64,000 nucleotides of DNA from Parcubacteria group bacterium GW2011_GWA2_42_14 (GTDB taxonomy: Bacteria > Patescibacteriota > Minisyncoccia > Sungbacterales > GWA2-42-14), in contig LCCV01000005.1 of assembly GCA_000998135.1 (NCBI GenBank), forward strand, positions 157 through 64,156, read 5' to 3'. The first letter of the stretch is position 1. Every line of letters starts with the position of its first letter. The translations under genes were made by a program, and so were the position numbers. The notes beneath the pieces were generated by a model that made no database searches, was not told the origin of the DNA, and was given only the letters and a program-made list of their open reading frames with translations. Shown in pieces: positions 3,787 to 63,991 of this stretch.

Positions 3787-3991
3787 ATTAATAAGTATTT
3801 ATTGAGCTTTTTAAGTATTTTAGTTATAGAGTTCAGATATCTAGTACTATATGTCCCCCATTATACTCGTAGTGGATTTTTTGTCAATAGCTACAAGAAT
3901 ATAAGAATGATAGTAAAAAAACAAATACTTTTTCGTTAACGAACCAACAGACGAACACAAAAACCGCCGATACCGGCAATTTTTTTGTTTA

Positions 3992-7295: not shown

Positions 7296-8642
7296 ATGTT
7301 AGAAATTGATAGTGAAAAACAGCTTAAAATTACTTATGTTCCGGTGGATTCCCTCCAGCCTTCCGAGTACAATCCGCGCTCATGGAGCAAAGATGCCGCC
7401 GGGCAATTGAAAGAGAGTATAACCAGATATGGAATGGTGGACCCCATTTTGGTAAACTCCGCACCCGAAAGGAACGGCGTACTTATCGGAGGGCATTTCC
7501 GATGGGCAATGGCAAAGGAACTTGGGATAACAGAAGTACCAGTTGTCTATCTTAATATTCCTGACCTTGAAAAAGAGAAGGAACTTAATTTAAGGCTGAA
7601 CCGCAATCAAGGCGAATGGAATCTTGAACTTCTCGCTGAATTTGATGAAAAATTGCTCGCCGATATAGGTTTTAGTTCCGAAGAGATTGATGAAATATTT
7701 GGAATTGAGGAGAATCCGGAAATGTTTGATCTGGAAAAGGAATTAAAAAAACTGTCGATTGATAAAGTTGACGTGCAGAAAGGCGACGTCTATAAAATCG
7801 GAGAACATCGCGTCATGTGCGGAGATTCCACGATTGAAACGGATATGCTCAAACTCATGGCTGGAGAAAAAGCCGATATGTGCTTCACAGACCCGCCATA
7901 TTTACTCTCATATTTGACCGGAAAGAAGCGACATGGAAAAGCAACTGAAGGATTCGGGTTAAAACGCGACCGCCGGTATCTAGAAACAGATGTTTTGCCG
8001 GATAACTTCACGGAACTCTGGATGACAAATATTGCCAAGATTCAAAAACCGGATTTTTCAATCATCGTGTTTGAGAATCCTAAGAATTTGCGGACTATCT
8101 GGAACGAACTTGAAAAGTATTGGCGCTGGCGCAATACAATCATCTGGCACTTACCAAATCGCGTCTCCGGTTTCTCAGCAAAATACAAGTTCTTTAACAA
8201 ACACGATATTGCCCTCGTCGGCACCGACGGGAATCCATCATTAAATTTGGAACCGGAATCGGATGAATTATTTCAAAACGAGTATGAGAACGCATTATAC
8301 GCAACTTCCGGAAAACCGCACTGGGAGGGCTATGAGAAAGGAAAAAAGATCTGCCCTACGGATTTTATTGAGCACATTGCGGCTGATGAAAAATCCAGCG
8401 GCCAAGGAATAATATTCGGCACGAAGCCGATTGAACTCCTTATCCCATACATCAAGGTTCTCACGAAACGCGGAGATCTTATAGTAGAACCTTTCGGCGG
8501 ATCGGGATCTATGCTGGTTGCGGCAGAAAAGTTGAAACGACGGTGCTTTCTGATGGAAAAAAGTCCGATCTACACAGCCGTCATATTAAACCGAGTTGAA
8601 AAAATTATTGGCATAAAAGGAGAAAAAATCAATGAGGGATAA
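7296..8642 (+). CDS. ParB-like nuclease domain fused to an N6-adenine/N4-cytosine DNA methyltransferase (beta-class)
   Basis: N-terminal ParB/Srx signature (YNPRSW ... GGHFRWAMAKELG). Motif IV DPPY (CFTDPPYLL) precedes motif I (VEPFGGSGS) at the C-terminus. Confidence 0.85.
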   Translation: MLEIDSEKQLKITYVPVDSLQPSEYNPRSWSKDAAGQLKESITRYGMVDPILVNSAPERNGVLIGGHFRWAMAKELGITEVPVVYLNIPDLEKEKELNLRLNRNQGEWNLELLAEFDEKLLADIGFSSEEIDEIFGIEENPEMFDLEKELKKLSIDKVDVQKGDVYKIGEHRVMCGDSTIETDMLKLMAGEKADMCFTDPPYLLSYLTGKKRHGKATEGFGLKRDRRYLETDVLPDNFTELWMTNIAKIQKPDFSIIVFENPKNLRTIWNELEKYWRWRNTIIWHLPNRVSGFSAKYKFFNKHDIALVGTDGNPSLNLEPESDELFQNEYENALYATSGKPHWEGYEKGKKICPTDFIEHIAADEKSSGQGIIFGTKPIELLIPYIKVLTKRGDLIVEPFGGSGSMLVAAEKLKRRCFLMEKSPIYTAVILNRVEKIIGIKGEKINEG

Positions 8643-28184: not shown

Positions 28185-28348
28185 AATATCCCTAGACCGT
28201 CCAAAAATGCCAAAAAGTTACTCCCTAAGCCTGTCGAAGGGTAACTTTTTGGCTTATGTCATGTAGGCCTTCGACAAGCTCAGGCAATATATTAAAGTTT
28301 TCGGACGGTCCGGCAAAGCTCCATATTTATTATACCGCGAATAATGAT

Positions 28349-30025
28349 TTAACGAAAACGAATAGGAATACGAAGTTCATCGTAATTTTCCGGCAATCCC
28401 GACGGATTATCTTTTTCCAGAATCAGTTCGCCCGACGCCGTATCCGGCATTTTAAATTCTAGGGTCGCGCGAAACGGAACAAAATCCGTTGTCATCCATT
28501 CGGATAACGCCTCGGCGTGTCCCCGAAAAATCTCCTTGCTATTGCCGTCAACAAGCCGCACCGGAAACGAAGCTTCAAAAAACCAATTGCCTCTCGCCTC
28601 GCCTTCAATAACCAGCGGGCTTTTTACAATTTTTCCCGGCAATGGTGTCTTAACTTTAATTAGATTTGATTTATCGCCTACTCGGGGCTTGCCGCTTTGA
28701 TAAATTATCTTATATATTACTCCGGCTTTGTCGTCGGAAAGAAACATCTCGCCCTTGGAATTAAAAATAATGTCAACCGGCCTCCCCAAAGCGCCTTCTT
28801 GGACAAGCCAACCGGTTATAAAATCTTCAACTCCCTGATAATTTCCATTTGCGTCAAATTTATGCCGGACGACTTTATAGCCGATTGGATCAGAACGATT
28901 CCATGAACCGTGGTAAGCAACCAAAAGATCATACCAATAATCTTCCGGCCAAGCTTGCCCTGAGCCTATCGAATGGGTGCCATTAGATACAAAAGCAAGG
29001 CCGAGAGGGGCAGAATGCGCCGGAATATCAATAAAGCTTGGTAATTCAAACGGCTCCATGCATGGGTTTCTAATATAGGTATTTTTATCAAAATCAGTGT
29101 CGTGAATATTTTTTCCGTAACAAATCGGCCAACCAAAATTCGGAATCGAATTTTGTTCTGAGTTTATTGAAGAATCTCTGATAATATTAATTTCATCCGG
29201 CGGCAAATTATCTCCCAGCCAATCGCGTCCCATTTCCGTTACCCACATTTCATTTTGAGCTTTATACCCATTATTTGCGGTGAGCCGGGTTAAACCATCT
29301 TGTGGTGAGCTTGTCGAACCATTCCAAACAAAAAATATGGCATTACGAAGGCCTTTCGCAAAAATCTTTGAAATTTTGGTCTGTATATCATACTGAATTA
29401 TACTTGCTCTTCTTTCAATCTCTTCGTTACAGACATTACAGCTTGAACCGACGGAAATATACAATTTATTATCAGGGCCAAATCCAATAGTGCGGGTAAA
29501 ATGCCCTTCTCCCAACGGCAAAGACAAAACGTCTTCGCCCAAGTCGTCAGAATAAACGGTTATTCTGCGAACACGATTTTCCTCGGCTATATACAGCAAA
29601 AAGGGATTATTCGGGTCAAACGCCAAGCCGTGCGGTTTACGCAAACCATTAAAAATATCATCCTGATGCAAAACTTTTCCTGTACCGCGGTCTATTTCAA
29701 GAAGCGTTATTGCCCCCTTGCCGGTGCGGCTCACCCACATATTGCCGAAAGTATCAAAACGCATAACCCTTGCTCCGGCAAGATTTTTGGCAAAAATTGA
29801 TATGGTGAAACCATCCGGAAGCTTAAGCGGAAAATTAGTTTCATTGATTGCTTCAGACGGTACTGTGTCTTCCGGAAGATATTCGGCAATATCCTTTGGA
29901 GGCGCGAAAATCGCCGGAGAAATACCTCTGAAATATTTTTTATAAATTCCAGAGCCGGCTAAAACAAAAAACAATGCTGCGAATAAAAAAATTATAAAAA
30001 CTTTTCGCGATATATTTCGCGCCAT
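28349..30025 (-). CDS. PQQ-dependent sugar dehydrogenase-like beta-propeller protein (YliI/GSDH family) with N-terminal TM helix
   Basis: PHGLAFDPNNPFLLYIAEEN and TIGFGPDNKLYISVGSSCNVCNEE resemble GSDH propeller motifs. Confidence 0.45.
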   Translation of the reverse strand: MARNISRKVFIIFLFAALFFVLAGSGIYKKYFRGISPAIFAPPKDIAEYLPEDTVPSEAINETNFPLKLPDGFTISIFAKNLAGARVMRFDTFGNMWVSRTGKGAITLLEIDRGTGKVLHQDDIFNGLRKPHGLAFDPNNPFLLYIAEENRVRRITVYSDDLGEDVLSLPLGEGHFTRTIGFGPDNKLYISVGSSCNVCNEEIERRASIIQYDIQTKISKIFAKGLRNAIFFVWNGSTSSPQDGLTRLTANNGYKAQNEMWVTEMGRDWLGDNLPPDEINIIRDSSINSEQNSIPNFGWPICYGKNIHDTDFDKNTYIRNPCMEPFELPSFIDIPAHSAPLGLAFVSNGTHSIGSGQAWPEDYWYDLLVAYHGSWNRSDPIGYKVVRHKFDANGNYQGVEDFITGWLVQEGALGRPVDIIFNSKGEMFLSDDKAGVIYKIIYQSGKPRVGDKSNLIKVKTPLPGKIVKSPLVIEGEARGNWFFEASFPVRLVDGNSKEIFRGHAEALSEWMTTDFVPFRATLEFKMPDTASGELILEKDNPSGLPENYDELRIPIRFR

Positions 30026-30034
30026 AAAAATGTC

Positions 30035-30080
30035 TTTAAAAACATTCTCATATTCTTAAGAATATGAGAATGTTTTTAAA
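30035..30080. promoter_or_regulatory. 46-bp perfect palindrome (site A) overlapping the ArsR stop codon
   Basis: Two 23-bp arms, TTTAAAAACATTCTCATATTCTT and AAGAATATGAGAATGTTTTTAAA, centred on CTTAAG. Confidence 0.8.
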
Positions 30081-30352
30081 AAACCATAAATAATCTTGCC
30101 GTATGGAGAAAGACCGTGAAGAACCTCCTGGCCGCGGTATTTTTTATTTACCAAGCCCGCCTGAACCAGCCGCCTGATATGTTCGGATATGGTCTTCATA
30201 TTGCAGTTTAAACGTTCGGCAATTTGCCACAAGGTAAGTCCGTCCTCGCCGGCAATCAAAAACACAATTTCGATGCGGCGATGATTAGCCACCCCCTTCA
30301 TATGCCCTTCAAGGTCTTTGGCTGTTTTCTTTAATTTTTTCATAATATTCAT
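30056..30352 (-). CDS. ArsR/SmtB-family transcriptional regulator
   Basis: HTH region RRIEIVFLIAGEDGLTLWQIAERLNCNMKTISEHIRRLVQAGLV. Confidence 0.75.
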   Translation of the reverse strand: MNIMKKLKKTAKDLEGHMKGVANHRRIEIVFLIAGEDGLTLWQIAERLNCNMKTISEHIRRLVQAGLVNKKYRGQEVLHGLSPYGKIIYGFLKTFSYS

Positions 30353-30368
30353 ATCCTAACATATCCTA

Positions 30369-30405
30369 AAAGATATTCCAATATTCTCAATATTAGAATA
30401 TCTTT
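30369..30405. promoter_or_regulatory. Degenerate palindrome (site B) in the ArsR promoter region
   Basis: AAAGATATTC and GAATATCTTT arms around CAATATTCTCAATATTA. It is a shortened copy of site C. Confidence 0.7.
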
Positions 30406-30438
30406 AATTAAAATTTTAATAACAAAACAGAAATAATT

Positions 30439-31476
30439 CTAGGACGCGGAAATAATTTTTTTGATTAACTCCTCATTCTTATGAATAATTTTTTCTTTAT
30501 CTTTTTCCTCTCCGCGCCATAAATCAGTGTAGGGAATATCAAACCAAGAAAGAATATAGTAAAGCCAAAAAAGGCTGCGGAGGGAATAATAAGACGAATC
30601 TATTGCCTTGCTCTTTTGATATGCTTCCCAAAATACCCGGGGGACTTCTCTGCCGTTGTACACTGATTGTAATTCGTATCCAGCCAGCACAAATCGCTGG
30701 TCGTGAAATCTGTGATCTTCAATATCAACCACGCCGGTAAATATCCAGCGATTATTTTCAAACTTCACCATCCCCTGAAGCCCGTCGGTGTGAGTCAATA
30801 CGAATTCTTTCGGGTCTTGCCAACCAGATTCAGCACTTGAAATAAAACTTTCAATTATGTCTTTTTTGCTCCTTAAAAATTCATTTGGACGCTTAATAGC
30901 ATTATTAAGACGAGAATGAAGCGAGAAAAAGAAAGCATCTTTCCAGTTCATTAAATATGGCTCTTTTTGAATTGTTACGCCGTCATAAGCCCTTGTAATT
31001 CCGTGGAGCTTGCCAAATATCTCTCCGGCAAGCGCGTGCGCCTCATCCCCTTGTTCGGGACCCCATCCAAGATACTCTTGAATTGATTCTCCTTCAATCC
31101 ACGACATAATTTGGTAGATGTAAGAAATATCTTTTGCGGGGAATCCGAATGAATAGAGTTTAAAAATCGGAATGCCGGCTTTTACAATAAGGCCATAAGT
31201 ATTCCGGACACTTTTGAAATCTTCATACGCGGTGCCGTAAACCCTATTGTTAATTCGTTCTTCTTCAGTTTGGTCAATAAAAACATCATTTAGCTTTACT
31301 GCAAGAGTTTCTCTTTTATCCCGTAAAACTGCTTCAACCTTGTACACATAGCCAAAATAGCCTAAAAGAACCCTCTCGCAGGTTATTAGTTTCCCATTTA
31401 GTTTGACGGCAATAAGACGTTCAATTATTTGTTGTGGATTTTGTGGTTCCGACATTATACGCAAGCCCCAACACAT
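30439..31476 (-). CDS. Phosphotransferase-family kinase (APH/choline-kinase-like)
   Basis: Brenner-type HxD in LTHTDGLQGMV and a DIEDHRFHD metal-binding region. Confidence 0.55.
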   Translation of the reverse strand: MCWGLRIMSEPQNPQQIIERLIAVKLNGKLITCERVLLGYFGYVYKVEAVLRDKRETLAVKLNDVFIDQTEEERINNRVYGTAYEDFKSVRNTYGLIVKAGIPIFKLYSFGFPAKDISYIYQIMSWIEGESIQEYLGWGPEQGDEAHALAGEIFGKLHGITRAYDGVTIQKEPYLMNWKDAFFFSLHSRLNNAIKRPNEFLRSKKDIIESFISSAESGWQDPKEFVLTHTDGLQGMVKFENNRWIFTGVVDIEDHRFHDQRFVLAGYELQSVYNGREVPRVFWEAYQKSKAIDSSYYSLRSLFWLYYILSWFDIPYTDLWRGEEKDKEKIIHKNEELIKKIISAS

Positions 31477-31480
31477 CCTT

Positions 31481-31520
31481 AAAGATATTCTAATATTCTT
31501 AAGAATATTAGAATATCTTT
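31481..31520. promoter_or_regulatory. 40-bp perfect palindrome (site C) upstream of the kinase gene
   Basis: Two 20-bp arms, AAAGATATTCTAATATTCTT and AAGAATATTAGAATATCTTT. Shares the core ATATTCTTAAGAATAT with site A. Confidence 0.8.
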
Positions 31521-31533
31521 AATTAAGGAATTA

Positions 31534-32037
31534 TCATTTCTTGGTTTTAACATAATATTCAAGAAAAATCTTTAACGTGCTTTTGAAACCGCCTGTATAT
31601 TTTTCGGGCTGTATTGCCATATCCCGATATACTTCTTTAGGGTCAGCCCAGAACACCCTTCTTACTTCGTCCTCTTTTAATTTCTCCGGCGCCGATTTAC
31701 AAATAAATATTTTAAACATATGCCGGTTGTCAAAAGTATCGCCCTTATCCCGTGCCCGCGACGAACCAATTTCTTGAAGCTTAATTCCAAAAATACCCAG
31801 CTCTTCTTCCAATTCCCTTTTCGCCGCCTCCGGATAACTTTCTCCGATATTAACGTGCCCCGCCGATGAATGGTCAAGATGCCCGTCTTTTGCCCTCTCG
31901 TTTACCAAGAGCTCGTTTTTATCATTAACAACATAAATAACGGCTACTCTATGAAGCAGGCCTTCTTGGTGCGCTTTCTCCCGGGTTATTTCACCAAGCA
32001 CATTGTCATTATCATCAACCCAAATAACATTATTCAT
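31534..32037 (-). CDS. NUDIX hydrolase
   Basis: Nudix box GHVNIGESYPEAAKRELEEELGI. Confidence 0.8.
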   Translation of the reverse strand: MNNVIWVDDNDNVLGEITREKAHQEGLLHRVAVIYVVNDKNELLVNERAKDGHLDHSSAGHVNIGESYPEAAKRELEEELGIFGIKLQEIGSSRARDKGDTFDNRHMFKIFICKSAPEKLKEDEVRRVFWADPKEVYRDMAIQPEKYTGGFKSTLKIFLEYYVKTKK

Positions 32038-34706: not shown

Positions 34707-34988
34707 ATGTCACAGCCATTGTTGCCGTGGGATTCTCTCAAAAGTACCAACCACCCCCAACTAGTCTGGCGAAGCCAGCTCAATGACAGATATATCATTG
34801 AAATGCAACGTACTGGCGGTTATAGCGGCAAGCTCTTTGTATTCGATCACAACCAGAGTGATCAGGAAATTTTTTCTGTGGATGTCGGTCTGTCCTATTT
34901 AGCAATGTTCGGACCTGATATGGCCGATGTCCAAGAATGGCATGGCACTTTTGAATATGCGGTATCAATGGGAAACACTTTGCATTAA
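34707..34988 (+). CDS. Hypothetical protein, about 93 aa
   Basis: AGGAAG 8 nt before the ATG at 34707. The longer ORF starting at 34563 overlaps the GT39 gene and is rejected. Confidence 0.4.
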   Translation: MSQPLLPWDSLKSTNHPQLVWRSQLNDRYIIEMQRTGGYSGKLFVFDHNQSDQEIFSVDVGLSYLAMFGPDMADVQEWHGTFEYAVSMGNTLH

Positions 34989-35909
34989 AAGGTTTAATAC
35001 TCTGTCTCGATATTTTTCGGTTTCCTCGTCTCCGCCAGTTACTGGTATTTCTTTCTTCAAAATCTTCAAACAACCCAATACCAAGCGAATACGGAAATCT
35101 TCTTTAGTAAAACCTCGCCTCTCTAGAAAAACATCTACAATATCGGTTCTTGAAAGGGGCAATAAATCATAAATAGGATATTTTACAAAGCCCATCATGG
35201 GATCTTGAAACGACGCGGATTCAAAATCTAAGTACCCTGTGATTTTGCCATTCTGTGCTAAAAAGTTTCCTGGTTGATAATCGCCATTAGAAATTACCAA
35301 TGGCGTGTTGATATTTTTAAGGATATCTTGTAAATATATTACCGCCAACCGGTAGCCATCCTCACTAAGCCACAAATTATTCTCATCATTCAGTAATTCT
35401 AATTCTTTCGTTAAAGTAAAACGCGGCATCAATTTTACCACCTCGTGACCTTCAATAAATGGTGTCGCATCCATTAACTTAATGACTCCTTCAACCAGCA
35501 GCTCTTTTGCTTTTTGCAAGCTCTCTTCAGAACGCATGCTAACCCTCTGAAGGTTCTCTCCGGGAAGCAACGAGTATACTGCTTCACTTTCTCCTGATTC
35601 GTTTAAAAATGGTTTTACCAAAACCTTAGGGACAGGTAAACCAAATTCTTCCAGAGCACTAAATATTTGTATTTCTTTCTCTACATCGCCATGGCGATTT
35701 TTTCTTAACACAACAGCCGCATAATCTCCATTTCTTGTTTGAATAGTAACGCGAATGGGGCACGGCAAGTCATAATTATCAAAATACTCCGCTTTCACAA
35801 TCGAATGAAAATCAGGACTAATACCAAGAAGGGCCTTACGTTCAGCAACAGTTAATTCAACTTTTCTTTCTTCTTCACTATGAAATTGATTCATTGGTTC
35901 GTTTTCCAT
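34965..35909 (-). CDS. Phosphotransferase-family kinase (APH-like), second copy; start ambiguous (35909 or 35966)
   Basis: ISNGDYQPGNFL catalytic loop and YLDFESASFQDP. Confidence 0.55.
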   Translation of the reverse strand: MENEPMNQFHSEEERKVELTVAERKALLGISPDFHSIVKAEYFDNYDLPCPIRVTIQTRNGDYAAVVLRKNRHGDVEKEIQIFSALEEFGLPVPKVLVKPFLNESGESEAVYSLLPGENLQRVSMRSEESLQKAKELLVEGVIKLMDATPFIEGHEVVKLMPRFTLTKELELLNDENNLWLSEDGYRLAVIYLQDILKNINTPLVISNGDYQPGNFLAQNGKITGYLDFESASFQDPMMGFVKYPIYDLLPLSRTDIVDVFLERRGFTKEDFRIRLVLGCLKILKKEIPVTGGDEETEKYRDRVLNLLMQSVSH

Positions 35910-36247
35910 TATTGTAACTTGCCGCCTAGATTTACTGATTGTTTTGCGGGAGTAATCAACACCCAACCATCTCCGGCATTGTTTTTAAAGCCGAGCGTAA
36001 GAACTTCCGAAGAAAAATTTCCAATGCGTTTTGGAGGAAAATTAACGACGCAACAAACAAACATCCCAAAAAGTTCTTCTTTGGTATGCGCTCCAACCGC
36101 TTGCACACTTGATACCTTGATACCAATTTCTGCACCAAAATCTATTTTCAGCTTAAAAGCGGGCTTCCGCGCTTCGGGAAAATCTTCAATTTCAACAACT
36201 TTCCCCACCCGAACATCAACCTTATCAAAATCTTCGTATATAATCAT
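35909..36247 (-). CDS. CsaA/EMAP-like tRNA-binding domain protein; start ambiguous
   Basis: VDVRVGKVVEIEDFPEARKPAFKLKIDFG matches the tRNA-binding (Myf) domain. Confidence 0.6.
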   Translation of the reverse strand: MIIYEDFDKVDVRVGKVVEIEDFPEARKPAFKLKIDFGAEIGIKVSSVQAVGAHTKEELFGMFVCCVVNFPPKRIGNFSSEVLTLGFKNNAGDGWVLITPAKQSVNLGGKLQ

Positions 36248-36857: not shown

Positions 36858-37352
36858 TTATTTACTCAGAAAAATTAAATCCCGCATGCGAATAAACTTG
36901 CCCTCGTAATCTCCAACATTTATTTCGCTCTCAAGCGTTTTTATGGCATCTTCTAATTTCATCCATTCTGGTTGAAACCCATCGTCAATTTCGTCACCAA
37001 CAAAATTAGGTAAACCTTTATCGCCAACAACGTCTGCAATATAGCAATAAGAAATCTGGTGTATTTTTAAATTGTTTCGATACTTCTCAATAATCCCAAG
37101 CTCTCGAATATTTTCGATAGAACAACCAATCTCCTCTAATACTTCTCTTCGTAACGCAGTTTCTATATCTTCGCCCTCTTCTATGCCGCCACCGGGGAGT
37201 TTGTGATAATTCTTTTTGGTAACATTCAACAATGCAACATTCCCATCTTTATCAAAAACAATCGCACGAGCCGCTTCGCGCTTGTCATAGTTGGGCGACG
37301 CTTGAGAATCAACTCCAATATCTGCATCCCGAATTGTTTTTAACAAATTCAT
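36858..37352 (-). CDS. NUDIX hydrolase
   Basis: Nudix box LPGGGIEEGEDIETALRREVLEEIG. Confidence 0.8.
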   Translation of the reverse strand: MNLLKTIRDADIGVDSQASPNYDKREAARAIVFDKDGNVALLNVTKKNYHKLPGGGIEEGEDIETALRREVLEEIGCSIENIRELGIIEKYRNNLKIHQISYCYIADVVGDKGLPNFVGDEIDDGFQPEWMKLEDAIKTLESEINVGDYEGKFIRMRDLIFLSK

Positions 37353-44633: not shown

Positions 44634-45026
44634 CTATCTTCTCCTTTTTATCCTTGCCAAAGGGTCAACCTTTAATTCTTCCATGACAATTCTTTGCCGC
44701 CGCCTATTTTTGTCGGCGCGCTTTTCTTTATATTTTCTAAGTTCGGCAGATAATTCCGCTTGAACCATATCAATAGCAGAACGAATATCCTCCGCCTCGG
44801 CTTCAGCCCTTAAAAATACCTTCGGGAGAACCAAATTAACTTCCGCCCGCCAAATCCTGCCTTTTTGGTGATGCCTGGTTTCTCTTTCAATCTCAATATC
44901 AAGAGAGGCGGGCTTAACCAAATTTTCGTCCTTTAATAGCTTGGCAACAATCCTTACTATTTTTAAATCAACATAAACGCGCAAAGGGGCGTCAATGCTA
45001 AATCCGGTTGTTTTTAAATTGAATTT
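44634..45026 (-). CDS. hpf: Ribosome hibernation-promoting factor / RaiA family (short HPF)
   Basis: From the internal Met MKFNLKTTGFSIDAPLRVYVD onward. Pattern ...HHQKGRIWRAEVNLVLP ... AEDIRSAIDMVQAELSAELRKYKEK. The ORF-track N-terminal extension to 45113 is rejected. Confidence 0.7.
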   Translation of the reverse strand, partial: KFNLKTTGFSIDAPLRVYVDLKIVRIVAKLLKDENLVKPASLDIEIERETRHHQKGRIWRAEVNLVLPKVFLRAEAEAEDIRSAIDMVQAELSAELRKYKEKRADKNRRRQRIVMEELKVDPLARIKRRR

Positions 45027-45068
45027 CATACTTATCTTAAGTATAACAGTATAATTTATTACAAGCAA

Positions 45069-45094
45069 GCAAACCGGTTTGCAAACCGGTTTGC
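45069..45094. promoter_or_regulatory. Tandem 14-bp palindromes GCAAACCGGTTTGC x2 (sharing GC) upstream of hpf
   Basis: Perfect dyad symmetry, 43-68 nt upstream of the proposed hpf start. Confidence 0.6.
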
Positions 45095-45294
45095 TGATAT
45101 AAGATTTATTCAAAACATGGCGCTCAATTTTATATTTATGCTCGTTTCGCCTTCAGCGAAACTGCGCGTAAACAAAATTGGCACTTATCCACAGTTGACG
45201 CAAAAAATTATTTATCATAAACTTAAAATAGTTACTCTTTTTTATTGATCGCCGGGGAGGACCCTCGCACACGCTTGCGGGGGTTTTTACAACA

Positions 45295-63344: not shown

Positions 63345-63382
63345 GAAGTCCGACTTCACTAAATTTAGTGAAGTCGGACTTC
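63345..63382. promoter_or_regulatory. 38-bp perfect palindrome GAAGTCCGACTTCACTAAA / TTTAGTGAAGTCGGACTTC
   Basis: Read directly from the sequence. No trailing T-tract on either strand. Confidence 0.7.
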
Positions 63383-63451: not shown

Positions 63452-63991
63452 TTATTCATAGGGAGGAGTATAAAAACCCAAAATAATGTCGGTAGTGGTA
63501 AATTTTGCTCCTGCCTGTTTCATTTCGCTTATGGCGCGTTCACAATCCCCGGGATTAATTTCAACCCCACGAATAGCATCTTCAATAACCGTAACTTCAA
63601 AGCCAAGCCGCAAGGCGTCAAGAACTGTTTCCTTAACACAATAGTCGGTGGCAAGGCCGCCGATATATAATTTCTGAAAACCATTTTTCCTTAAAAACTC
63701 GTCCACTGAAAATCTAAGAAAACGTCCATTATTATCAAGAAAACCCTGAAAGGCTGAATACGCATCTTCATTTTTTTCCGTGCCCTTGGAAATGACTATA
63801 ACATTACTTGGCAACAGCAAATTCGGATGAAATTTTGCTCCCCAAGTGTTGTGAACGCAATGAACCGGCCATTTTCCGCCATAGGCATTAAAGTGGCTGG
63901 TAACAGGGGGATGCCAGTCGCGAGACGCAACAACCAACATTTGGACATCTTTCGCGAGTTGAATCATATTATTTAGCGGCTGAACCACCAT
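63452..63991 (-). CDS. pncA: Nicotinamidase / isochorismatase-family hydrolase; the N-terminus may extend beyond the window end
   Basis: DWHP ... HCV ... GGLATDYCV catalytic cysteine context. Confidence 0.8.
   Translation of the reverse strand: MVVQPLNNMIQLAKDVQMLVVASRDWHPPVTSHFNAYGGKWPVHCVHNTWGAKFHPNLLLPSNVIVISKGTEKNEDAYSAFQGFLDNNGRFLRFSVDEFLRKNGFQKLYIGGLATDYCVKETVLDALRLGFEVTVIEDAIRGVEINPGDCERAISEMKQAGAKFTTTDIILGFYTPPYE

Follow-up and report, generated by a model that had tools for sequence, protein, structure and literature searches.

We analysed a 64,000-nucleotide stretch (hereafter the window) of contig LCCV01000005.1 from Parcubacteria group bacterium GW2011_GWA2_42_14, which contains three long related palindromes, designated A, B and C, and, between B and A, a gene for a small ArsR/SmtB-like winged helix-turn-helix (wHTH) protein. 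From the sequence evidence set out below, we consider it probable that the three palindromes are the cognate sites of this protein, and the protein together with a motif of about 32 bp is probably an undescribed repressor/binding-site pair of ultra-small Patescibacteria. Gene regulation in Patescibacteria (Candidate Phyla Radiation) is nearly unknown, and a recent overview of the biology of this group leaves transcription factors unmentioned. A search of the available literature returned no description of the motif or of the wHTH-palindrome pair, no paper containing the motif strings, and no paper linking Patescibacteria with ArsR proteins and palindromes or with palindromic elements. The finding amounts to a readily testable pair, consisting of a 95-residue protein and its site, which spans about 32 bp and is predictable in hundreds of uncultivated genomes, and such a pair would let maps of regulons and sites be drawn from sequence alone.

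Palindromes A, B and C are versions of one element

An initial annotation of this DNA had described three related palindromes, and this description was correct: A and C exceed every other perfect palindrome of the window in length, and B is the same element. Site A (30035-30080) is, as annotated, a 46-bp perfect palindrome lying over the stop codon of the wHTH gene. Its arms (30035-30057 and 30058-30080, 23 nt each) are 100% complementary and meet without a spacer, and its layout, ACATTCT-C-ATATTCT-TA-AGAATAT-G-AGAATGT, comprises four half-sites. The stop codon of the wHTH gene (30056-30058) is at the centre of the palindrome, the left arm encodes on the gene strand the C-terminal residues K-T-F-S-Y-S of the protein, and 10 bp separate the end of site A from the ATG of the next gene. 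Site C, which lies between the stop of a NUDIX hydrolase gene and the start of an APH-like phosphotransferase (kinase) gene, is a perfect palindrome as annotated, although the 40 bp assigned to it (31481-31520) had to be extended to 44 bp (31479-31522), with arms of 22 nt (31479-31500 and 31501-31522) that are 100% complementary. Site B (30369-30405), described as degenerate and located in the wHTH promoter, is indeed degenerate and overlaps the putative wHTH promoter. Its arms (30369-30385 and 30389-30405) are arranged as 17-3-17 and are 94% complementary, with one mismatch. Site B equals site C minus 3 bp at the centre, and owing to this loss its centre, TTGAGA on the gene strand, is not the CTTAAG that had been proposed for all three sites and is found at A and C. 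In addition, it carries ATTCC as its outer variant, as upstream sites of the wHTH family typically do. Every arm consists of two direct AYATTCY copies with an 8-bp period; the resulting four half-sites per site suggest that two dimers would bind each site.

Exact matches to the 16-mer core of the motif were found in the window only at A and C, and when up to 3 mismatches were allowed there were four matches against 0.89 expected, a number reached in none of 100 shuffles. A weight matrix derived from related sites and applied to the whole window retrieved A (53 bits), C (44 bits) and B, compared with a shuffle maximum of 1.5 bits (20 shuffles). The only further match was a lone half-site, ATCATTCTTATATTCTT (3895-3911, minus strand; AAGAATATAAGAATGAT on the plus strand), which lies in an intergenic gap, has no partner arm and scored 20.0 with the half-site matrix against a shuffle maximum of 19.3, a borderline value; it may be a decayed site. 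The full motif thus occurs in the window around the wHTH gene only.

Sites B and C also have sequence in common outside the palindromes, on both sides and down to an ATG, and the common downstream flank is about 35 nt long. The segment 31453-31522 (minus strand), comprising site C and some 25 nt downstream of it, aligns with the wHTH promoter-operator at 30341-30410, and the direct repeat D2 formed by the two regions is 55 nt long with 76% identity. Given these common flanks, the kinase gene appears to be preceded, at site C, by a copy of the wHTH promoter-operator.

The motif accompanies the wHTH gene in other genomes

Homologues of the wHTH protein in Yanofskybacteria and Sungbacteria (65-68% identity) carry one copy of the motif about 34-50 bp ahead of the start codon and another over the stop codon, and their neighbouring genes are unrelated. 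For a protein-first sample, 80 metagenome loci were collected by the wHTH protein alone (56-71% identity), and 77 of them were evaluable. The motif was scored as present at up to 4 mismatches to the 28-mer ATTCTNAYATTCTYRAGAATRTNAGAAT, and "upstream" was defined as within 150 bp. It was detected upstream of the wHTH gene in 74 of the 77 loci and at the 3' end of the gene in 76, supporting the earlier claim that the palindrome and the ArsR-like gene belong together. The 3' register is identical in 64 loci, where the palindrome is centred on the stop codon (TGA or TAA) and its left arm codes for the C-terminal residues T-F-S-H-S. In a second wHTH subfamily (43-48% identity, found in Planctomycetota among others), the last part of the open reading frame (ORF) is a decayed palindrome, translated in a different frame, with an intact site no more than about 60 bp beyond the ORF end.

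The opposite, motif-first scan searched genome contigs for the exact pattern, with one genome per species, and yielded at least 120 eight-kb blocks. Among the 120 blocks listed, to which the counts below refer, the wHTH gene was the sole recurrent neighbour of the motif (24 blocks by clustering, 28 by phmmer), and the 28 blocks bearing it always displayed the stereotyped geometry. The motif is kept even at 60-69% G+C, with the wHTH gene alongside in two loci (L035 and L123).

The dedicated four-gene block centred on the ArsR-like gene that the initial annotation had proposed was not upheld. The 65 genes located downstream of wHTH genes fell into 48 clusters, and in one locus (L011) the gene upstream of the wHTH gene is unrelated to the kinase of the window; a conserved operon was rejected on these two results.

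Promoter layout and putative autoregulation

A consensus scan identified a putative wHTH promoter at 30363-30390 (minus strand), composed of a -35 element TTGAGA (30390-30385) that coincides with the site B centre, 16 nt of spacer and a -10 element TAGGAT (30368-30363). With its -35 element and spacer lying under the upstream palindrome, the wHTH gene would show the arrangement typical of classical autorepression. In the interval from site B to the wHTH start there is a tandem 10-bp duplication, CATATCCTAA x2 (30350-30369), which doubles the -10-like TAGGAT.

A corresponding layout was observed across the protein-first sample. At the upstream sites, a -10-like TAnnnT, often with a preceding TG, starts at +22 (25 loci) or +19 (17 loci) from the palindrome centre, giving 42 of 77 at these two positions; 59 of 77 upstream sites have TAnnnT somewhere in the range +19 to +28. 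The upstream-site centre reads TTGAGA in the direction of the gene in 38 loci and in the opposite direction in 22. At the downstream sites, TAnnnT was present in 25 of 77, with a flat distribution and no peak. Autoregulation of the wHTH gene via its upstream site, as proposed in the initial annotation, is likely and is the best reading of an upstream site that overlaps the promoter, has a -35-like centre and is followed by a -10 element at a fixed distance.

The wHTH protein is a distant member of the ArsR/SmtB family

The wHTH gene (30056-30352, minus strand) was called as 98 codons, and its product is identical to a Parcubacteria group bacterium GW2011_GWA2_42_14 protein annotated as hypothetical. 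Translation probably starts at the ATG at 30343, which would give a protein of 95 residues, as in most homologues. The protein exceeds the Pfam gathering thresholds of PF01022 (36.8 versus 22 bits) and PF12840 (36.1 versus 27 bits), thus matching the ArsR (HTH_5) and HTH_20 models, and it matches MarR models as well. Sequence matches to HlyU (E = 2e-6) and CadC (E = 9e-5) indicate a distant ArsR/SmtB member. The AlphaFold2 model (mean predicted local distance difference test score, pLDDT, 87) has the topology a1-a2-a3-aR-b1-b2-a5, with helices at residues 11-17, 24-35, 41-48, 52-64 and 83-96 and strands at 68-73 and 76-81. The top Foldseek matches of the model were HlyU, CadC, CzrA, SmtB and SqrR, plus MarR-type proteins.

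The ArsR identity given in the initial annotation therefore stands for the fold and the Pfam family; it does not extend to the metal-site motifs of ArsR/SmtB sensors. The protein scores under the cut-off of the NCBIfam metalloregulator model NF033788 (43.9 versus 55 bits), and the ArsR/SmtB metal ligands (CXC in a3; D/H-x-H...H in a5) are absent from the wHTH alignments A2 and A3. The a3 region reads LTLWQIAERL, the lone cysteine (Cys50) is not invariant, and there is no cluster of histidine and aspartate residues in a5. No metal efflux or detoxification gene is adjacent: the neighbours in the window are the NUDIX, APH-like and GSDH-like genes, and those in 65 other loci are heterogeneous. Profile searches and the structural model matched wHTH families only and revealed no catalytic domain. 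When the protein was examined with PADLOC as a possible part of a defence system, only generic wHTH matches to Csa3/CARF tails were returned, and this candidate was dropped.

The family is compact, with 86 clusters at E <= 1e-10 among 1.84 billion representative proteins, and its members occur across many Patescibacteria classes with 60-73% mutual identity. The recognition helix, N-x-K-T-x-S-E-H-x-R-R-L, is invariant in both wHTH subfamilies and parallels the invariant ATTCT core of the site. Since the helix does not vary, there was nothing to correlate in a search for co-variation between helix and site. Five further proteins of 380-887 residues (P0155, P0204, P0249, P0250 and P0261) match the 98-residue wHTH protein in 5-9 separate stretches each and appear, by these matches, to be tandem arrays of wHTH domains related to the family of the window.

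The motif also occurs away from wHTH genes

Most of the blocks obtained in the motif-first scan come from Patescibacteria of many classes, and some come from Planctomycetota, Phycisphaerae, Verrucomicrobiota and Omnitrophota (PVC phyla). The motif-bearing contigs include one of 5.97 Mb with 69% G+C. Taxon labels of metagenome bins may be wrong, and some of the bins outside Patescibacteria may be mis-binned; the high-G+C contigs cannot be. About three quarters of the blocks lack the wHTH gene, and several assemblies hold blocks both with and without it. Beyond the wHTH family, no recurrent protein family was found near the sites, and no transposase, integrase or tyrosine recombinase. According to crude longest-ORF calls, the only gene calls available for the fetched loci, 80 sites lie in tandem gaps, 23 in convergent gaps, 8 in divergent gaps and 23 inside ORFs. 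Pfam searches of 66 site-adjacent genes returned DNA polymerase I, tRNA synthetases, glycosyltransferases and restriction-like nucleases, among others.

The copy number appears to be low, as each contig of 100-600 kb contributed a single 8-kb block. Extra sites, counted at up to 2 mismatches, occur at about 1 per 13 kb near wHTH genes and about 1 per 41 kb around solo sites. A phage origin was considered and rejected on the basis that viral contigs contained no match to the motif pattern. Point mutation cannot have produced a motif of this information content, and copying must therefore account for its sites. Beyond the window, the motif is a low-copy duplicative element, whose solo copies lie in intergenic gaps and, as old in-frame loop insertions, in housekeeping genes.

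Some loci depart from the usual single four-unit site. In one (L060, ~1398-1470) the 8-bp unit extends beyond four copies into runs of (ACATTCTA)n, and two others (L078, ~7829-7880; L063, ~1322-1365) have additional GAGAATGT units. Another locus (L082, 3791-3866) has two full sites 48 bp apart within one ORF. A site lies 17-43 bp past the stop codon of an Obg or YchF GTPase gene in four assemblies (L090, L094, L101 and L127) and inside ychF in a fifth (L036), so that proximity to Obg/YchF GTPase genes may be a conserved position.

The sites inside recognisable genes were compared with homologues. These sites encode the peptide HS(H/D/N)IL(K/E)N(V/M)R(M/I). Aligned with solved homologues, the peptide corresponds to lineage-specific loop insertions, with gaps of 13 residues in MurD (3lk7), 17 in TsaD (8iey) and 9 in GluRS (2o5r). 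In YchF it stands in place of a variable loop and adds a net 3 residues, and in two IleRS genes it occupies the same position. The MurD orthologues are particularly informative: four with 54-58% identity have an intact site, two have a decayed one, and three have a loop that is 24 residues shorter and shows no trace of the site. The intact murD copies differ at the DNA level only where the motif itself varies, and they include the CTGCAG centre that is also found beside wHTH genes. In AT-rich genomes such as these, codon bias could account for part of this pattern, but the presence of the same peptide in unrelated proteins points to a constraint on the DNA. Retention of an intact site across orthologues of 54-58% identity favours selection over recent spread and indicates that a copy can persist for a long time. 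Directly after one murD gene carrying the intragenic palindrome there is an ORF resembling a LAGLIDADG-type homing endonuclease (L219, 1555-2223). Together with the insertion sequence (IS)-like layout of the wHTH unit, the intragenic copies raise the question of how sites of more than 45 bits get copied around streamlined genomes.

The locus and other features of the window

All four genes of the locus are on the minus strand, and the order of genes and sites is NUDIX, C, APH-like, B, wHTH, A, GSDH-like, with one palindrome in each gap, exactly as first annotated. The NUDIX hydrolase gene (31534-32037; Pfam NUDIX 9.8e-15) ends 12 bp from site C. The APH-like phosphotransferase gene (30439-31476; Pfam APH, E = 4.3e-6) is directly downstream of site C, and its true start may be the ATG at 31455, to judge by its alignment with the likely wHTH start. 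Directly downstream of site A is the gene at 28349-30025, whose product combines an N-terminal membrane anchor with a GSDH/TrAA12-like propeller and a Gmad2 domain; the Pfam match to Gmad2 is at 8.9e-13, those to GSDH and TrAA12 are weak, and TrAA12 and Gmad2 are also given in the precomputed annotation. A second APH-like kinase gene and a second NUDIX gene (34965-35966 and 36858-37352), situated a few kb from the locus, make two NUDIX/APH pairs in the window. The weight-matrix scan of the window found no palindrome motif beside this second pair.

The 165-bp gap that follows the GSDH-like gene (28185-28348) is structured: its nested inverted repeats comprise 28219-28240/28268-28289 and a 13-bp stem, GCCAAAAAGTTAC...GTAACTTTTTGGC. 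Strain L001 lacks 9 bp of the loop in this gap (a 9-bp indel), and the sole Rfam match to the gap was AaHKsRNA41, far below threshold. Elsewhere in the window there are two perfect palindromes of other kinds. The third longest of the window, GAAGTCCGACTTCACTAAATTTAGTGAAGTCGGACTTC (38 bp, 63345-63382), is unrelated in sequence to A-C and lies just downstream of ORF 63452-63991 (minus strand); a 28-bp palindrome, AGCAAACCGGTTTGCAAACCGGTTTGCT (45068-45095), consists of two overlapping copies of GCAAACCGGTTTGC and lies inside or at the end of ORF 44634-45113 (minus strand).

Proposed function and alternative explanations

If A-C are cognate sites of the wHTH protein, the protein most likely represses its own synthesis, as site B would cover the -35 element and the spacer of its own promoter. 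Site C, as a copy of the promoter-operator before the APH-like kinase gene, would place the kinase under the same control. At site A, bound protein or a transcript hairpin could limit read-through into the GSDH-like gene, or bound protein could repress that gene. The local regulation model of the initial annotation thus seems reasonable for B and plausible for C, and for A the support is its standing as the invariant 3'-end site of the family. Blocking of read-through, repression of the next gene, marking the end of a mobile unit and the bidirectional termination suggested in the initial annotation are all candidate roles for site A. Binding itself, its stoichiometry, a repressing and not an activating effect, and any releasing signal are features that we infer from sequence.

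Several results weigh against such regulation. Sites A and C have no convincing -10 element at the offset seen in the family, and solo sites lack a fixed -10 peak, and a promoter at the latter was rejected. The excess of convergent over divergent gaps (23 versus 8) is the wrong bias for operators. No functional theme emerged among the 66 site-adjacent genes by Pfam, so a coherent regulon was rejected, and DNA looping was rejected because the spacing of the two gene-flanking sites shows no helical phasing. At least 12 sites lie within long recognisable genes, always in the one open frame. Finally, palindromy extends beyond the conserved core through site-specific complementary bases, which a protein-binding site would not need; 18 sites have at least 4 extra pairs beyond position 17, compared with about 2.5 expected.

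Because the motif is also dispersed as solo copies, the wHTH protein is better viewed as binding specific DNA sites across the genome than as regulating a single operon. The initial annotation had named a dispersed repeat unrelated to the ArsR-like gene as the finding that would tell against its model. Dispersal is indeed what we see, with copies far from wHTH genes, in convergent gaps and in frame within genes; the separation from the wHTH gene is not. It is conceivable, though we hold it the less probable outcome, that the unit of about 380 bp consisting of palindrome, promoter, wHTH gene and palindrome is an IS-like minimal element of a kind not recognised before, which encodes only a sequence-specific DNA binder, and that its palindromic ends have spread by copying in Patescibacteria and PVC genomes, where they act as portable binding sites, some of them kept in frame in essential genes such as murD. 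If this were true, it would represent a bacterial dispersed repeat that forms a genome-wide network with its binder.

A related possibility, to which we give about the same limited credence, is that the palindrome is a selfish duplicative element resembling repetitive extragenic palindromic (REP) sequences, miniature inverted-repeat transposable elements or Rickettsia palindromic elements (RPEs), with the site-promoter-wHTH-site unit as an IS-like master copy. The wHTH protein would then only bind the ends, regulating itself or aiding an enzyme that acts in trans, and sites A and C would serve no regulatory function toward their neighbours. This explanation overlaps that of cognate binding sites rather than excluding it. 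A motif of at least 28 bp at more than 100 unrelated places cannot stem from point mutation, and selfish spread would account for the in-frame loop insertions in MurD, TsaD and GluRS, the heterogeneous neighbouring genes, the reiterated units in three loci and the common flanks of B and C, as well as for a layout whose left end holds the -35 element and whose right end holds the stop codon. It is harder to reconcile with the lack of a recurrent transposase or recombinase near the sites and of a catalytic domain in the wHTH protein, with a low copy number (extra sites about 1 per 40 kb around solo sites), with the absence of matches in viral contigs, with a MurD site that is intact at 54-58% orthologue identity, and with the high conservation of the wHTH family. 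Recombination sites of the Xer/dif or attC type bounding mobile gene cassettes are another form of mobility. The 28-bp core can be read as 11-6-11, and the palindromes punctuate consecutive same-strand genes; yet no recurrent neighbour is an integrase or tyrosine recombinase, the sites have full symmetry, more than one is present per genome, some are inside genes, and the linkage to the wHTH gene would be left unexplained. We regard this explanation as very improbable.

The remaining two alternatives both seem unlikely. The palindromes could act as RNA hairpins, either bidirectional intrinsic terminators or stabilisers of transcript ends between packed genes, with the link to the wHTH gene being secondary. 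If transcribed, A, B and C are predicted to form stable hairpins (-26.4, -16.7 and -26.9 kcal/mol; z-scores -8.0, -4.3 and -6.5), site A passes a loose terminator scan, A/T tracts are mildly enriched at the sites, and the preference for gene 3' ends, seen in the convergent excess, and the lengthening of the stem by site-specific complementary flanks fit an RNA role. A purely RNA-level role is hard to square with a stem whose primary sequence is conserved across phyla, since terminators have no need of this, and the stems are AT-rich. No directional U tract was found, tandem gene pairs showing no T-tract asymmetry toward the downstream side; sites within essential genes would terminate those genes; the upstream site belongs to a putative promoter; and Rfam gave only sub-threshold microRNA-like hairpin matches and no known RNA family. 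Slightly less likely still are sites for chromosome organisation or segregation, similar to parS, Ter, matS or Noc sites, bound by the wHTH protein for a non-transcriptional purpose, with the gene-proximal ones serving only in autoregulation. Few sites per genome, conservation across phyla, genic as well as intergenic positions, sites flanking the gene of the binder, long retention of the MurD site and the lack of a functional theme among adjacent genes are all compatible with such a role. On the other hand, there is no partner ATPase or other recurrent neighbour, the perfect symmetry is unlike that of polar fork traps, and the wHTH protein is unrelated by sequence to ParB, RTP and MatP.

Comparison with known systems

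Compared with integron attC and Xer-dif sites, the wHTH palindromes have perfectly symmetric arms, several sites per locus and no recombinase among the neighbours. There is a likeness to REP sequences and their RAYT genes (REPIN-RAYT): both are short palindromes that flank a dedicated gene, with solo copies that are mostly intergenic and often at 3' ends, and both persist for long within lineages. Nevertheless, the partner here is a 95-residue wHTH protein rather than an HUH Y1 transposase, and the wHTH palindromes appear to be low-copy, whereas REP sequences number tens to hundreds, and are partly intragenic and conserved across phyla. Like RPEs, they occur in frame in housekeeping genes, where they add loops and keep the reading frame open. 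In contrast to RPEs of ~100-150 bp, the element of the window is 34-46 bp long, gave no match in Rfam or elsewhere, occurs in other phyla, has a cognate gene for a DNA-binding protein and, in MurD, is conserved in sequence in diverged orthologues. Insertion sequences, which can regulate themselves through binding to their ends, resemble the wHTH unit in having a -35 element in the left inverted repeat and the end of the ORF in the right one, but the wHTH unit has no catalytic domain, each of its ends is a complete palindrome, and no target-site duplication was seen.

ParB-parS and the RTP-Ter system of B. subtilis share with the wHTH pair a palindromic or dyad site at the gene of the binder plus a few further copies, some of them genic. 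RTP binds as two wHTH dimers to a site of ~30 bp and is autoregulated. No homology of the wHTH protein to ParB or RTP was detected, and there is no ParA-like partner.

The protein relatives are the ArsR/SmtB proteins, a family of dimeric repressors that bind inverted repeats, with multi-dimer binding on long operators in SmtB and CzrA. The wHTH system differs from them in that the protein lacks the CXC (a3) and a5 metal sites, has no metal-resistance neighbour and falls below the NCBIfam cut-off. Its operator is a four-unit palindrome of 32-46 bp rather than a 12-2-12 repeat, and it has a second site at the stop codon and dispersed sites, some of them within genes. With HlyU, CadC, CzrA, SmtB, SqrR and YgaV, the wHTH protein shares the fold, the size and the a1-a2-a3-aR-b1-b2-a5 topology, and the AT-rich inverted-repeat operator over the family's own promoter, with the autoregulation that goes with it, has its apparent counterpart in the wHTH system.

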